From a virus (Duplodnaviria; Heunggongvirae; Uroviricota; Caudoviricetes): a stretch of DNA of 5,737 nucleotides. Positions 1-5,737 of this stretch are shown in pieces; position 1 is the stretch's first letter, and each line of letters opens with the position of its first letter. Made by a program: the position numbers and the translations under genes. The notes below the pieces were generated by a model, which was not told where the DNA came from, made no database searches, and worked only from the letters and a program-made list of their open reading frames with translations. The stretch is taken from positions 1 to 5,737 of IMG/VR virus record IMGVR_UViG_2667527770_000006. One strand, 5' to 3'.

Positions 1-93
1 GAGATAGCGCTGATGTCCGGCAGTGCTTTTGCCGTTACGCACCACCCCGTCAGTAGCTGAACAGGAGGGACCACTGATGGAGATGGAAGCCAC
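1..93 (-). CDS. insA: IS1 InsA, N-terminal fragment (GTG start at 93, partial at the window edge)
   Basis: Minus-strand translation from the GTG at 91-93 gives [30 protein letters not shown], which matches the InsA N-terminus apart from a few substitutions. The frame is open to the window edge. Confidence 0.7.
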
Positions 94-148
94 GGGAGCA
101 CCTCAAAAACACCATCATACACTAAATCAGTATGTTAGCAGCATTACC
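1..148 (-). mobile_element. IS1: IS1-family insertion sequence, IRL-proximal end, partial (element body continues beyond the window start)
   Basis: Positions 1-148 read as the reverse complement of the first ~148 nt of IS1 as I recall it (terminal inverted repeat at ~126-148, element ending ...gcagcattacc at 148), with several substitutions relative to the canonical copy. The sharp switch to AT-rich sequence at 149 marks the boundary. Confidence 0.9.
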
Positions 149-233
149 CCCACATTTTTTTGTTGCAATGCACACATAAAAAGATAACAATTGGATACCC
201 CTGTTACTATGTGAGCATATACAACTTGTTCAA

Positions 234-272
234 TTTCGCCATTTGGTTGCGATAGCCAAGGGCGGTAGCGTA
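234..272 (+). promoter_or_regulatory. JUMPstart-like element with ops (operon polarity suppressor) motif; predicted RfaH-dependent antitermination site in the 5' leader
   Basis: GGCGGTAGCGTA at 261-272 matches the 12-nt ops consensus GGCGGTAGCGTG at 11 of 12 positions. The preceding agccaag resembles the conserved 3' half of the JUMPstart sequence (recalled as ...AGCCAGGGGCGGTAGCGTG). It sits 44 bp upstream of the ATG at 316. The promoter itself, between the IS1 end and ops, is not confidently located. Confidence 0.65.
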
Positions 273-315
273 GTATTTTACACATAAGCAAAAAATTAAT
301 ATATAAGCAAGTCAA

Positions 316-1161
316 ATGGAAAAGATATTAACGATAGTACGACATAAACCAGGTAGGTTCCGTTTTTTATTAAGAGCATTACATTCTGTTTATAACCAAA
401 CATTCAAGGAAGTAAAAGTAGCAATATATTGCATGGGTGCTGAACAGGATCTCTCTAAAGATGAGTATTCGTATATTAACACAATCCAGGAAAAATATAA
501 CCTTAGTCTAATACCGTTCAATCAAGATGTATCAGAAATAATTAAAAAAAGTGATTGTGAATATATATGCTTTTTAGATGATGACGATACCTGGGCTCCA
601 GAGTATCTATCTCGCATTTCAAGTACGCTTACAGCGACACGTCTTAAATACCCGTCAATCAATGCCATAGCATGCCACAGTAATAAAGTGGTAGAGGTTG
701 CGGAGAGAAATAGAATAATTATTAACACAACATACCCATGGAATCATTACTTAGCAGTTGGCCCGCTTAGTTTTGATGTAATTCATTACAAGAATAGCCT
801 TCCAATTTCATCATGTTTTTTTGTTAAGAACTCAATATTTAATATTATAAATAAACATAACTTTTCTTCGCCATCTTTCTTTTGGCCCTTCTTAATTGAT
901 TATTTATCACAAAATGATCTTTGGATTCTTCCAGAACCCTTAGCATTCTATCATTTTAGAAAAAGTACCGATTTCAAGTACGGCAATTTCACAGAGATTA
1001 ACAGAGAAGAATGTGAGATTGATTATAGATTAATGATTAACAATATGATGAGAGATAGCAAAAACTCTACGCTATTAAACACACTACTATCAAACCTAAC
1101 TAATAGCAATATGGTATATAAACTATCCAACATTGAAAACAAATTAAATGAAAGAAAATAA
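316..1161 (+). CDS. Glycosyltransferase, family 2 (GT-A fold) candidate
   Basis: 281-aa ORF. FLDDDDTW (DDDD at nt 577-588) fits the GT2 hLD(S/D)DDxW DxD motif. The N-terminus ILTIVRHKPGRFRFLLRALHSVYNQTF resembles the GT-A beta1/alpha1 pattern (IP.YN...L...L.S...QT). Very AT-rich with rare codons, as in O-antigen and capsule genes. Weak Shine-Dalgarno. Confidence 0.75.
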   Translation: MEKILTIVRHKPGRFRFLLRALHSVYNQTFKEVKVAIYCMGAEQDLSKDEYSYINTIQEKYNLSLIPFNQDVSEIIKKSDCEYICFLDDDDTWAPEYLSRISSTLTATRLKYPSINAIACHSNKVVEVAERNRIIINTTYPWNHYLAVGPLSFDVIHYKNSLPISSCFFVKNSIFNIINKHNFSSPSFFWPFLIDYLSQNDLWILPEPLAFYHFRKSTDFKYGNFTEINREECEIDYRLMINNMMRDSKNSTLLNTLLSNLTNSNMVYKLSNIENKLNERK

Positions 1162-3525: not shown

Positions 3526-3720
3526 TTAGCTACTGGATCCGTCACCTCTCGGGGTCGCAGAAACATTCCCTCCCGATATAGTTACGTAGTTTCCGGAGAT
3601 GATTAACTCCCTGATATTTTTTTCAGTTTCACTATCAACTTCAACACAGTCTGCTGGCATCACAGATACATCGTGCTTGTCACCGACAAAAAAACCCTGC
3701 ATGGTTGGACTAAAATACAT
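3526..3720 (-). CDS. Tail fibre assembly (Tfa) chaperone-like ORF, short (64 aa), probably a truncated N-terminal remnant
   Basis: MYFSPTMQGFFVGDKHDVSVMPADCVEVDSE matches my recollection of the N-terminal pattern of enterobacterial prophage Tfa proteins (M.YFS...GFY...PADAVEV.DE). It lies immediately downstream of the tail fibre gene, with a 1-nt gap. It is far shorter than typical Tfa proteins (130-200 aa) and lacks the conserved C-terminal part. Confidence 0.5.
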   Translation of the reverse strand: MYFSPTMQGFFVGDKHDVSVMPADCVEVDSETEKNIRELIISGNYVTISGGNVSATPRGDGSSS

Positions 3721-3721
3721 A

Positions 3722-4606
3722 TCAATACCCCTCGGACGTAAAGTGAATTACCGGCACATAAGTTGTGTCTTTCGAAATAACCTCTACCACAAATTGTGTT
3801 GTAGATACCCCTTCGGCTGAATTCACGGTCCGGTTACAATTGGCCCAATAACCAAACTCTGGACCTTGTTTATCAAATGTTCGCCCCGCTAACGTGACCG
3901 CCGTCGAAATATGCGCTGTTGGATAGGCTCTTGGGAGCGTCACGGTATAAAAGCGCGTGTAGTAATCGACTCCACCTAAAGTTTGTTTGTTATAGGTAGA
4001 AACCTCCGCAAGAGTGACGATGCCGTACTGATGAATATGCCCGTTCGGCAGAATATACCAGCCTGAAGAAGCTGTATCAGACGCGGAGAAGCTGGACATA
4101 TCGGGGATCTGATCATTACCCGTGCCGACATCCCTTTTCGCCGCTTCTCCCAAACCAAGGTATGTGAGAATGTCAGCAATAGTATTTTTCCCAATAATGT
4201 CACGGCCAACAGAAGTTAAATCAGTCTGCGCTGCTGTATCATTTCCAGTGAAATATGGGAGTTTATTTGCACCTGTTGCGAGCCCAGCTAATGCCGACAG
4301 CGTGGCATCAAGCGCCTGGAAATCTTTCCCGAAAGCGGTCCCCATTTTGGATATAAACCCGTTCAGGTCTCCATCATCAAGCACATCCAGCCCGCTTTTG
4401 TTGGCGGTGTACTGCGCCAACGCTGCCGCGATAAAGCTGGCTTGCCGAATAGCTTTGTTGACCTGTGCGCTGGATGCTTTACCTGCCGTAAACCCTGAAA
4501 GCAGAGCCGGAAGTGCTTCCCAGTCAGCTTGTGAGGTGACGTTAGCGTTCGGATCAAGCGCGAAAGGTTTAAAGTTGTTTATTGCCATTAGAGTATTGTC
4601 CCCCAT
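3722..4606 (-). CDS. Phage tail fibre protein (receptor-binding), 294 aa
   Basis: Long ORF rich in Gly/Ser/Thr/Ala/Asn, placed between a baseplate-type gene and the Tfa-like gene. GGAG lies just upstream of the ATG at 4606. The alternative start at 4588 (MAINNF...) overlaps the upstream stop as TAATG. Assignment is by synteny and composition, not a recognised motif. Confidence 0.55.
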   Translation of the reverse strand: MGDNTLMAINNFKPFALDPNANVTSQADWEALPALLSGFTAGKASSAQVNKAIRQASFIAAALAQYTANKSGLDVLDDGDLNGFISKMGTAFGKDFQALDATLSALAGLATGANKLPYFTGNDTAAQTDLTSVGRDIIGKNTIADILTYLGLGEAAKRDVGTGNDQIPDMSSFSASDTASSGWYILPNGHIHQYGIVTLAEVSTYNKQTLGGVDYYTRFYTVTLPRAYPTAHISTAVTLAGRTFDKQGPEFGYWANCNRTVNSAEGVSTTQFVVEVISKDTTYVPVIHFTSEGY

Positions 4607-5268
4607 GCTCCAACATCGAACCCGCCGATGTATTCGTTATCCATATCAAACCCAAAGAATTTAGAGCCTTCTGACGGTGTTTCTACCGAAGGCGTTTCAA
4701 CATCACCGGCCCATACGCCAGCTGATTTAACGGTGAGATAGCCCTGTTTGATAGCGGCGATCAGTTCGAGAGACACATCAGAAATATCAGTTTCAGGGAA
4801 AACCCAGACCGAAATCGTCATGTCCTGGTTGTCGACGATCTGCATCCTCAGGCCTGAGCCTGCGGTAGCAGCGTCAAGGATGGGAGGCAGAGAGTCGTTC
4901 CGACCGTCCCAGTTGTTGATAGCGATTTTCGCTTTCAGAATGATGCGGTACGTCTCATCGCTTAGCGTCGTATAGCCAGAATCAGGATCATATGGCCCTT
5001 GCCAGATGCCCTGGTCATACCCAAGCCCGTCAGTGTCCCAGCTGAAATAAACTCCGCTAATTGGCTGGCTGACTATGCGACTGCGTCCGATCCACAGACC
5101 GAGGATGTCGAGCTGTACACCGACAGCAGTATCGATATCGAAGGCTGTTATAAGCCCTGACATAGTGCTGGACACATCAATCAGCGGGCGGGTGCTCAGA
5201 TCTATATGGTCAAAAAAGAGTGGCTTGGTAGCGTGGTAGTTAGTGATCAGTTCGGTGTATTTGCTCAT
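4588..5268 (-). CDS. Phage tail/baseplate protein (position equivalent to Mu gp48 / P2 gpI upstream of the tail fibre gene), 226 aa
   Basis: Intact ORF whose start overlaps the stop of the upstream fragment (ATGA at 5265-5268) and whose stop overlaps the start region of the tail fibre gene, consistent with a coupled tail operon. Function is inferred from gene order. Confidence 0.55.
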   Translation of the reverse strand: MSKYTELITNYHATKPLFFDHIDLSTRPLIDVSSTMSGLITAFDIDTAVGVQLDILGLWIGRSRIVSQPISGVYFSWDTDGLGYDQGIWQGPYDPDSGYTTLSDETYRIILKAKIAINNWDGRNDSLPPILDAATAGSGLRMQIVDNQDMTISVWVFPETDISDVSLELIAAIKQGYLTVKSAGVWAGDVETPSVETPSEGSKFFGFDMDNEYIGGFDVGAWGTIL

Positions 5269-5476
5269 GAGGTCACCGTGATACTGATATTCGCGGTGCT
5301 ACAGGACGCTGAAGCATCATAGGCAATATCAATGTTTGATGCCGATACGCTGCCAGACGACTTACCGATCAGCAGGTCGGTAATATCGTAATAGCGGGCA
5401 TTCCCGCCGCTCACAACGCCGAGGTTTGCCGGGGAATAAATACGGCTCAGCAGAACGTCGTCGCCAATTGTTAGGC
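5265..5476 (-). pseudogene. 3' fragment of a phage tail/baseplate gene truncated by the IS1 insertion
   Basis: I hand-translated the minus strand and found an open frame across the whole 209 nt up to the IS1 boundary (...RLTIGDDVLLSRIYSPANLGVVSGGNARYYDITDLLIGKSSGSVSASNIDIAYDASASCSTANISITVTS-stop), ending in TGA at 5265-5267 that overlaps the next ATG. There is no start codon; the 5' part is replaced by IS1. Confidence 0.5.
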
Positions 5477-5737
5477 GGTAATGACTCCAACTTATTGATA
5501 GTGTTTTATGTTCAGATAATGCCCGATGACTTTGTCATGCAGCTCCACCGATTTTGAGAACGACAGCGACTTCCGTCCCAGCCGTGCCAGGTGCTGCCTC
5601 AGATTCAGGTTATGCCGCTCAATGCGCTGAGTGTAACGCTTGCTGATTACGTGCAGCTTTCCCTTCAGGCGGGATTCATACAGCGGCCAGCCATCCGTCA
5701 TCCATATCACCACGTCAAAGGGTGACAGCAGGCTCAT
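5477..5737 (-). mobile_element. IS1: IS1-family insertion sequence, IRR-proximal end, partial (continues beyond the window end)
   Basis: GGTAATGACTCCAACTTATTGATAGTG at 5477-5503 is the IS1 right inverted repeat. The following sequence is the reverse complement of the IS1 3' region. Same orientation as the copy at 1-148. Confidence 0.92.
5492..5737 (-). CDS. insB: IS1 transposase InsB (InsAB' C-terminal part), partial at the window edge
   Basis: The translation [81 protein letters not shown] matches the C-terminus of IS1 InsB as I recall it. Confidence 0.88.

Follow-up and report, generated by a model that had tools for sequence, protein, structure and literature searches.

The analysed stretch of DNA, hereafter the window, comprises 5,737 nt and is identical to an entire draft contig of E. 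coli (L016; GCA_000785765.1, JRPZ01000087.1). Both of its ends consist of IS1 sequence. When aligned to IS1A, the left end (window 1–148) corresponds to IS1 positions 148..1 on the minus strand (92.6% identity, E 2e-58) and the right end (5477–5737) to positions 768..508, also on the minus strand (98.5%, E 8e-133); this IS1A reference and the IS1A annotated in PK8277 agree at 99.6% identity. IS1 elements were recognised by a length of 768 bp, imperfect terminal inverted repeats of ~23 bp (GGTRATG...) and the insA and insB' frames joined at the A6C frameshift site; the window ends cover nt 1–148 and 508–768, and the related copies in locus L019 the full 768 bp. The window thus begins with the IRL-proximal 148 nt of one copy and closes with the IRR-proximal 261 nt of another, IS1A-type copy. 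The two are direct repeats, with the IRL of the left copy and the IRR of the right copy facing inward, and their boundaries are exact at 148/149 and 5476/5477.

Junction comparison delimits an AT-rich spacer (149..315, 35% GC) between the IS1 IRL end and a glycosyltransferase gene, and a promoter and terminator scan of the AT-rich DNA found no convincing promoter in this spacer. The gene (316..1161, plus strand, 31.7% GC) encodes a 281-residue family-2 (GT-A) glycosyltransferase (Pfam PF00535, E 7e-6, over the curated cut-off), and exact look-ups confined this allele to three sister assemblies. The next plus-strand gene (1148..3106) encodes a 652-residue protein (647 residues from 1163) annotated as “HAD family hydrolase”, which matches PDB 7SHG, a “ribofuranosyl transferase” (E 1.2e-13, residues 4–602 against 28–629), and Bcs3 (E 3.8e-16, residues 15–462) and carries the HAD-IA signature TIGR01549. 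Similarity over nearly the full length identifies it as a homologue of the dual-domain proteins that combine a PRPP-dependent ribofuranosyltransferase (gPRT) with a HAD-type phosphatase, a family described previously (PMC11231755). Neither cassette protein matched a defence system in PADLOC. The non-coding region downstream (3107..3525), which had no match in Rfam, is the right-hand boundary of a shared phage moron, as homology with other cassette-bearing prophages stops at 3461 (YD786/WCHEC type) or 3528 (MIN9/Klebsiella type).

The remaining genes lie on the minus strand. A 64-residue ORF (3526..3720) located 3' of the tail fibre gene was called as a gene in L004, L016, L018 and L027; it matched no family and could represent a tail-fibre chaperone, either short or reduced to a remnant. 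The tail fibre protein itself (3722..4606; 294 residues, or 288 from an alternative start; PHROG 11303, E 4e-81) has an N-terminal part common to other prophages down to ~4146 and a variable C-terminal part; the match to PEC422 covers window 4146–5476 at 100%. An intact DUF2612/baseplate wedge protein of 226 residues follows (4588..5268; Pfam PF11041, E 6e-46), the same protein as WP_038348741.1 in PK8277 and PEC422. Translation and comparison with the 400-residue PEC422 gene show that the last gene (5265..5476) is what remains, the final 70 codons, of a baseplate J/gp47 gene interrupted by the right IS1. Judged from its sequence, the bracketed 5.3 kb are an orphan piece of temperate phage DNA, in which a predicted low-GC glycan-modifying moron (GT2 plus ribofuranosyltransferase) adjoins the remains of tail genes (fibre, DUF2612 wedge and the 3' end of baseplate J).

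The first-pass annotation had read the two IS1 termini as direct copies bracketing this segment in the manner of Tn9. As the window is a whole draft contig, its IS1 ends mark assembly breakpoints, and a contig that ends on both sides in a multicopy repeat is a usual short-read product, with the same orientation expected in 50% of cases; the window alone is therefore no proof of a paired structure, and its outer flanks had to be inferred from relatives of 99.9% identity. Two such relatives, from assemblies other than that of the window, contain the entire window at 99.9% identity between two complete 768-bp direct IS1 copies (L019, a 5.2 Mb contig, and L027, a 5.05 Mb contig). Since both copies are present in these multi-megabase contigs, the bracketing itself is real. 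The L019 copies, at 5219–5986 and 11315–12082, enclose window 149–5476 and are 97.9% and 99.6% identical to IS1A; their insA and insB' frames are open, the TTAAAAAAC motif is present, and both outer termini (left IRR, right IRL) are intact. They have 572 bp of perfect identity in common, so that transposition or deletion between the copies is mechanistically possible. The left IS1 of L027 carries a 15-bp in-frame deletion. In both genomes non-phage DNA surrounds the phage fragment, whose cut ends coincide exactly with the IS1 elements. Their left flank is common for 1.4 kb, and the two genomes begin to differ precisely where the right IS1 stops on its outer side; in L027 the block lies between ghrA and IS3-dgcT.

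The two IS1 copies differ in age: all 20 cassette-bearing loci examined have one and the same inner-left junction (148/149), and the right junction is confined to the lineage of the window. Beside the cassette these loci carry a decayed IS1 variant, ~90% identical to IS1A, frameshifted and usually lacking its outer IRR. Outside the window lineage, 13 of the 14 loci that extend far enough, Klebsiella-type contexts included, have this IS1 cut at nt 734 without an outer IRR, and YD786 is the only one to keep a complete copy. In the window the left IS1 is a hybrid. Positions 62–148 (IS1 nt 1–87), or at least the inner ~77 nt, belong to the diverged variant found beside the cassette everywhere, and positions 1–61 (IS1 nt 88–148) are of the ordinary IS1A/B type. 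Ordinary IS1 copies match 1–68 at 100%, and of the 13 mismatches to PK8277, 6 lie close together at 25–61. The same hybrid is present in L017, L018, L019 and L027. Together with the shared junction, this composition points to homologous recombination as the probable source of the hybrid. From PK8277 and MIN9 the left IS1 had appeared to lack its outer IRR and hence to be unfit as a transposon arm, an objection dropped for the window lineage once the full-length hybrid copy was seen.

As the first-pass annotation had proposed, the right IS1 inserted into a pre-existing phage tail gene; this insertion is the later one and is specific to the lineage. Read on the minus strand, baseplate J meets no stop at 5476/5477 and continues for 21 codons within IS1, and comparison with relatives lacking this copy revealed the uninterrupted site in PEC422 at 100% identity (L011 10331/10332). 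If the insertion was simple, 5468–5476 (TTGTTAGGC) would be the inner copy of its 9-bp duplication. The junction is common to L004, L006, L015, L017, L018, L019 and L027, was found in 0 of 5,426 complete E. coli genomes, and was recovered from JGI data in one short contig only (L015). Neither the right junction nor the conserved left junction had a match in species-representative genomes. PK8277 and PK8217, 99.8% identical over 1–5382, lack the right IS1 and have a different one at 5382/5383. For the far junction that was predicted (IS1 IRL, 6–12 nt, then the rest of baseplate J), JGI metagenomes gave 0 matches. The 333-residue truncated baseplate J that a simple insertion duplicating 9 bp should yield is absent from a collection of 15 billion proteins, in which a single residue difference would hide a match, and truncated members of the cluster show no IS1 read-through tail. 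A literature search on the WGS accession prefixes returned no paper. A 4-base patch at 5624–5636 resembles the diverged variant; it is absent from L019 and L027 and occurs only in the window contig.

IS1 insertions normally produce target duplications of 8–9 bp (PMC12065110). At the outer flanks, read in L019 and L027, no 9-bp duplication surrounds the unit: the left flank reads GTTTCCGTG and the right flank CCCGGTGCT (L019) or GANCATCCG (L027). Directly outside the left IS1 lies a 60-bp fragment of an IS1 IRR end (L019 5159–5218), and if this fragment is counted as flank, the left sequence GACTTTGTC is also unmatched by CCCGGTGCT or GANCATCCG. As a positive control, ET846 carries an IS1-bounded insertion in the same glycosyltransferase gene with a perfect 9-bp duplication of window 831–839. 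In 29 complete genomes without the cassette, a lone IS1 in a DUF5983 gene, part of a CP4-44-type island, has a junction that equals the outer-left one base for base; the outer-left junction was thus not created by insertion of a composite element. No cassette-free genome was seen with the 60-bp fragment, which may owe its origin to the event that brought in the segment. We found no genome in which the outer flanks are contiguous or one IS1 apart, no copy of the unit at a second unrelated site, and none on plasmids or phages. What stands of the proposed Tn9-like composite is therefore the direct IS1 pair with intact outer termini and transposase; a target-site duplication, a second site or an empty site for the unit did not come to light. 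Likewise, the proposal that the segment could move or be deleted through its IS1 copies holds as a mechanistic possibility, and the unit may be mobilisable or deletable through the 572 bp identical repeat, but no such event is documented, neither as an excision product nor as a copy flanked by a duplication.

We consider it probable that the architecture arose from independent IS1 insertions and IS1–IS1 homologous recombination and not from a Tn9-like unit that transposed as a whole. A decayed IS1 variant of old standing has long been fixed beside the cassette in the phage, as seen across the compared loci, and a second IS1 entered baseplate J at 5476/5477 in the window lineage, as seen against the PEC422 site. 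Homologous recombination of the decayed left copy with an ordinary IS1, at a point between IS1 nt 77 and 88, would then have rebuilt a full-length left IS1 and brought the cassette next to the flank of the IS1 resident in the DUF5983 gene of the CP4-44-type island. The outer side of the right IS1 would also have been rearranged, where the loss of the remaining prophage is directly observed. IS insertion within IS, and homologous recombination as a source of IS1 variants, have been documented experimentally (PMC12065110). Two observations sit less well with this stepwise explanation. Given the 60-bp fragment, the left copy abuts the inside of another IS1 with its outer IRR, a junction of the kind made by transposition and not accounted for by simple homologous recombination. 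In addition, the native attachment site of the phage appears to be yecE (from PK8277 and PI12), and the position of the block between ghrA and IS3-dgcT in L027 implies that some relocation of IS1-bounded DNA occurred.

True Tn9-like transposition we regard as unlikely: following repair of the left IS1, the unit would have inserted into the resident DUF5983 IS1, 60 bp from its IRR end, and the right arm would then have collapsed with the remainder of the target IS1 by homologous recombination, erasing the duplication. A complete IS1 end with a 60-bp IRR fragment next to it is the expected outcome of insertion into an IS1, and the fragment is found only together with the cassette; the outer ends and transposase frames of L019 are intact, and the segment lies away from its phage context with exact IS1 boundaries. 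Laboratory evolution has moreover shown that IS1 pairs readily transpose as composites and that IS1 inserts into IS1 at the expected frequency (PMC12065110). A lone IS1 inserting into the resident copy would, however, leave the same 60-bp fragment. The route also requires two extra events (the prior repair and the later collapse), no remainder of the target IS1 lies beyond the right arm, and the missing duplication, the lack of a second or empty site and the absence from plasmids and phages all count against it.

It is similarly doubtful that the segment arrived by a circular, translocatable-unit-like route or a double crossover, in which it was excised with one IS1 between direct copies, or came in on phage DNA, and recombined homologously with resident IS1 copies to enter the island. 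The hybrid left IS1, an outer-left junction that is the resident IS1 junction and the 572 bp identical repeat all suit such a route, which is also the classic behaviour of IS1-flanked r-determinants such as that of R100/NR1, but it leaves the 60-bp fragment unexplained, and neither a circular form nor an excision product was observed. The far flank of the resident DUF5983 IS1 (13E0725, 98-3133) does not match the right outer flank of L019 or L027; integration through a single IS1 was rejected on the same ground. That no real pair exists, the IS1 ends being an artefact of contig stops and the mosaic bases a mixture of reads from different IS1 copies, is highly improbable. The window is a whole draft contig and its 4-base patch is private to it, but the two multi-megabase contigs with both complete copies and the same hybrid essentially refute this explanation. 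A hybrid produced by bubble popping or consensus mixing was rejected, as the switch between variants falls within ~10 nt, which requires real spanning reads, and recurs in three draft assemblies as well as in the two large contigs.

Under the favoured explanation of independent insertions and recombination, the bracketed segment is a scar of a type ordinary for E. coli genomes. Recombination with a chromosomal IS1 would have restored an inert, decayed, phage-borne IS1 to full length and apparent function, and IS1 has detached a probable surface-glycan-modifying cassette from its phage, leaving it in a genomic island. The case is also a caution that a draft contig with the same IS at both ends mimics a composite transposon, yet is the default short-read product in an IS-rich genome. 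We think it improbable that the whole is an active Tn9-like transposon, or a translocatable unit driven by IS1 homology, which moves a ribofuranose-adding phage cassette between chromosomal islands independently of the phage and whose 60-bp fragment is an insertion scar in the resident IS1; if such movement were true, it would provide a phage-independent route for spreading a serotype-modifying function.

The unit resembles Tn9 (IS1-cat-IS1) in its direct IS1 copies around a passenger of a few kb, with outer termini and transposase frames intact in L019. Unlike Tn9, it has no flanking 8–9-bp duplication, its arms differ in origin, one being a recombinant of a decayed variant, its outer-left junction pre-exists in cassette-free genomes, it occurs in one lineage only and never on a plasmid, and its passenger is a phage fragment and no resistance gene. 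The IS1-flanked r-determinant of R100/NR1 undergoes excision, amplification and reintegration by IS1–IS1 homologous recombination; here too direct IS1 repeats offer portable homology, and the hybrid IS1 suggests recombination within IS1 at the segment boundary, but the segment sits in the chromosome, and circular, deleted or amplified forms of it were not observed. Like IS26 pseudo-compound transposons and translocatable units, the unit lies between direct IS copies, and its spread may use recombination with a resident IS that leaves no new duplication; IS family and chemistry differ, and by analogy an IS1 route would be RecA-dependent homologous recombination. The ET846 insertion (L014: IS1, a CptA-like PEtN transferase, IS5 and an IS1 fragment) is IS1-bounded and involves the same host cassette and IS family; unlike the window unit, it has outward-facing IRR ends (inverted arms), and its perfect 9-bp duplication is a real transposition signature.

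The IS1-bracketed architecture of the segment is real. The entire window is found at 99.9% identity in two multi-megabase contigs, L019 (GCA_027274845.1, 5.2 Mb; listed with five further similar places, not shown) and L027 (GCA_001907935.1, 5.05 Mb), and in both a complete 768-bp IS1 stands on either side of the segment, the two in direct orientation. The insA and insB' frames are open in both copies of L019, which differ at 13 sites, all within nt 1-196 of the element, and are identical over nt 197-768 (572 bp). The left IS1 of L027 carries a 15-bp in-frame deletion.

The window alone is a weaker witness. 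It is identical to an entire E. coli draft contig of 5,737 nt (JRPZ01000087.1, GCA_000785765.1) and ends in IS1 on both sides because the draft assembly stopped in a multicopy repeat. Aligned to an IS1 reference sequence (99.6% identity to the IS1A annotated in strain PK8277), positions 1-148 correspond to IS1 nt 148..1 at 92.6% and positions 5477-5737 to nt 768..508 at 98.5%. The first-pass annotation was therefore right to call the ends direct-repeat IS1 termini: both lie on the minus strand, and the inward-facing ends are the left IRL and the right IRR. In the complete E. coli genome collection, IS1-containing matches occupy a median of 11 places per genome (maximum 68), so that a contig with IS1 at each end is expected, the two ends will be oriented alike half the time, and the arrangement is uninformative by itself. 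Two sister draft contigs (L017, L018) share 100% identity with the window over 5,537 nt.

The outer flanks were compared in L019 and L027. Directly before the complete left IS1, and in tandem with it, stands a 60-bp IS1 IRR end (nt 709-768; 5159-5218 in L019, 5174-5233 in L027), from which it follows that one IS1 has its end fused to internal sequence of another; no complete E. coli genome has this fragment without the cassette of glycosyltransferase and 'HAD' genes. Further out comes the 3' part of a DUF5983 gene, where a CP4-44-type island (DUF4942, DUF957, DUF5983) ends. This outer-left junction is, base for base, that of a lone IS1 in 29 cassette-free complete genomes (e.g. 13E0725 and O157:H16 98-3133), and that IS1 end is therefore older than the cassette. 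On its outer side the right IS1 borders directly on an IS66 tnpA (L019) or on an HTH pseudogene beside IS3 (L027), the divergence between the two contigs beginning exactly at the outer end of this copy. A target-site duplication around the unit is absent from both (9-mers GTTTCCGTG vs. CCCGGTGCT or GANCATCCG), and the outer flanks were found contiguous, or one IS1 apart, in no genome. In two of the cassette-free genomes, 13E0725 and 98-3133 (records L032/L033), the lone IS1 (4121-4888) joins the DUF5983-gene island remnant to the region of an efa1/lifA-type toxin gene with a TcdA/TcdB glycosyltransferase domain; it has no target-site duplication and is itself a rearrangement joint.

IS1 normally leaves a duplication of 8-9 bp (PMC12065110), and a true IS1 composite insertion with this signature occurs in the same DNA. 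In ET846 (L014, 4312-8000), the glycosyltransferase gene is interrupted by an IS1-bounded insertion with IRR ends outward, comprising a complete IS1, a CptA-like phosphoethanolamine transferase of 388 aa (far under the MCR cut-offs), IS5 and a 96-bp IS1 IRR fragment. It is bordered by a perfect 9-bp duplication of window 831-839, whereas the window's own unit has none. The proposal of a Tn9-like composite transposon thus holds for the architecture (two IS1 copies, intact outer ends, intact transposase) but not for transposition, with neither a flanking duplication nor a second or empty site. The apt name for the unit is IS1-bracketed (composite-like) orphan prophage fragment rather than transposon; as an IS-mediated genome scar it is an unremarkable further example of a familiar kind.

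The right IS1 entered pre-existing phage DNA, as had been proposed: in PEC422 the same site is uninterrupted and 100% identical, within a 400-aa gene, and in the window the baseplate J frame stays open for 21 codons into the IS1. A simple insertion would place the N-terminal 330 codons of baseplate J beside the IS1 IRL, preceded by TTGTTAGGC. The junction (5476/5477) occurs in 0 of 5,426 complete E. coli genomes and was found in L004, L006, L015, L017, L018, L019 and L027. The closest complete genomes, PK8277 and PK8217 (99.8% identity over window 1-5382), are free of this insertion; they carry an IS1A at 5382/5383 in the opposite orientation, without a duplication and joined to a recombinase gene beside a truncated yecE. 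L004 (GCA_040040355.1), another member of the window lineage, has a further IS1 in the glycosyltransferase gene at 400/401, inverted relative to the right IS1. With the PK8277 (5382/5383) and ET846 (831-839) events included, at least five separate IS1 events fall within this 5.3 kb. Bases 5624, 5630, 5633 and 5636 of the right IS1 are those of the diverged IS1 variant described below rather than IS1A and are missing from L019 and L027; this patch (5624-5636) reflects either a small gene conversion or mixed IS1 copies at a short-read contig end.

The left junction (148/149) is unchanged in every other cassette context, namely eight complete E. coli genomes (at yecD-yecE, dusA and zinT-yodB) and Klebsiella-type loci (beside thrS or a T6SS/dinI region). 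Since the right junction is restricted to one lineage, the two arms of the putative transposon arose at very different times. In the other contexts the left IS1 belongs to a diverged variant that shares about 88-91% identity with IS1A and has been annotated as frameshifted. YD786 alone has it complete, with no target-site duplication at its ends; in all others outside the window lineage it is cut at nt 734 and has no outer IRR. Decayed, mostly lacking one end and at the same junction everywhere, this IS1 can be taken as an old passenger, no longer mobile, of the phage moron region, whose place is at the prophage end just past the tail-fibre genes. In the window lineage the left IS1 is a hybrid, with the diagnostic bases of the variant over nt 1-77 and ordinary IS1 from nt 88. 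Window 1-68 matches ordinary IS1A/B copies at 100% in thousands of records, and of the 13 positions at which the window departs from PK8277, 6 lie within 25-61. The hybrid is real, because the switch spans only about 10 nt and is reproduced by independent assemblies (L017, L018, L019, L027); homologous recombination with an ordinary IS1 is its simplest cause.

The most economical history, which we hold with somewhat better than even confidence, is stepwise IS1 insertion and recombination. A decayed IS1 was carried by the phage beside a glycan-modifying moron, and a later IS1 entered baseplate J. The decayed copy would then have crossed over with an ordinary island-resident IS1, giving the full-length left arm and its new left flank, and a further IS1-associated rearrangement on the right would have removed the rest of the prophage. 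The rival history, in which a true composite transposed into a resident IS1 and its right arm then collapsed, is unlikely given the missing marks of transposition; the main point in its favor is the 60-bp fragment, a transposition-type junction seen only with the cassette. For IS1, insertion of one IS into another and recombination between the nested copies are on record (PMC12065110), and these could also be the source of the fragment. A circle or double-crossover route seems slightly less probable again. The apparent native phage site is yecE, whereas the block in L027 lies between ghrA and IS3-dgcT, so IS1-bounded DNA has been relocated to some degree, whether by a homologous or by a transpositional route.

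The cassette consists of a GT2 glycosyltransferase (316-1161, plus strand, 31.7% GC) and a 652-aa 'HAD' protein (1148-3106, plus strand, 34% GC), beside a minus-strand tail remnant (a 64-aa ORF, a 294-aa tail fibre, a DUF2612 wedge protein and the last 70 codons of baseplate J). The annotated 'HAD family hydrolase' matches a ribofuranosyltransferase of solved structure (PDB: 7SHG) nearly end to end (E 1e-13), and the ribofuranosyltransferase region of Bcs3, the Hib capsule polymerase (E 4e-16). Such enzymes use PRPP and themselves dephosphorylate the product afterwards (PMC11231755; PMC10299916). By homology, the 'HAD' protein and adjacent GT2 look like a phage-borne module by which ribofuranose, and probably another sugar as well, is added to a surface polysaccharide; the cassette thus probably decorates a surface glycan with ribofuranose. 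The exact 647-aa HAD protein occurs in more than 400 contigs, many from Klebsiella, and the 90% cluster includes a 652-aa member from a Caudoviricetes MAG. Among PLSDB plasmids and INPHARED phages nothing matches the cassette (149-3461); only parts of the tail region do so.

Among cassette-bearing prophages, homology stops at two discrete points, window 3461 (YD786/WCHEC type, with a Mu-type tail) and 3528 (MIN9/Klebsiella type, coinciding exactly with the neighboring tail gene's stop codon), as if morons had been exchanged at gene boundaries among phages whose tail modules differ. Within the tail fibre gene, identity with PEC422 breaks off near 4146, where the constant part meets the variable part. 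In PEC422 (L011, 4916-9442) the fibre and chaperone genes are duplicated in opposite orientation beside a serine recombinase, an arrangement that looks like an invertible host-range segment; a recombinase is also retained in PK8277, beyond its IS1A.
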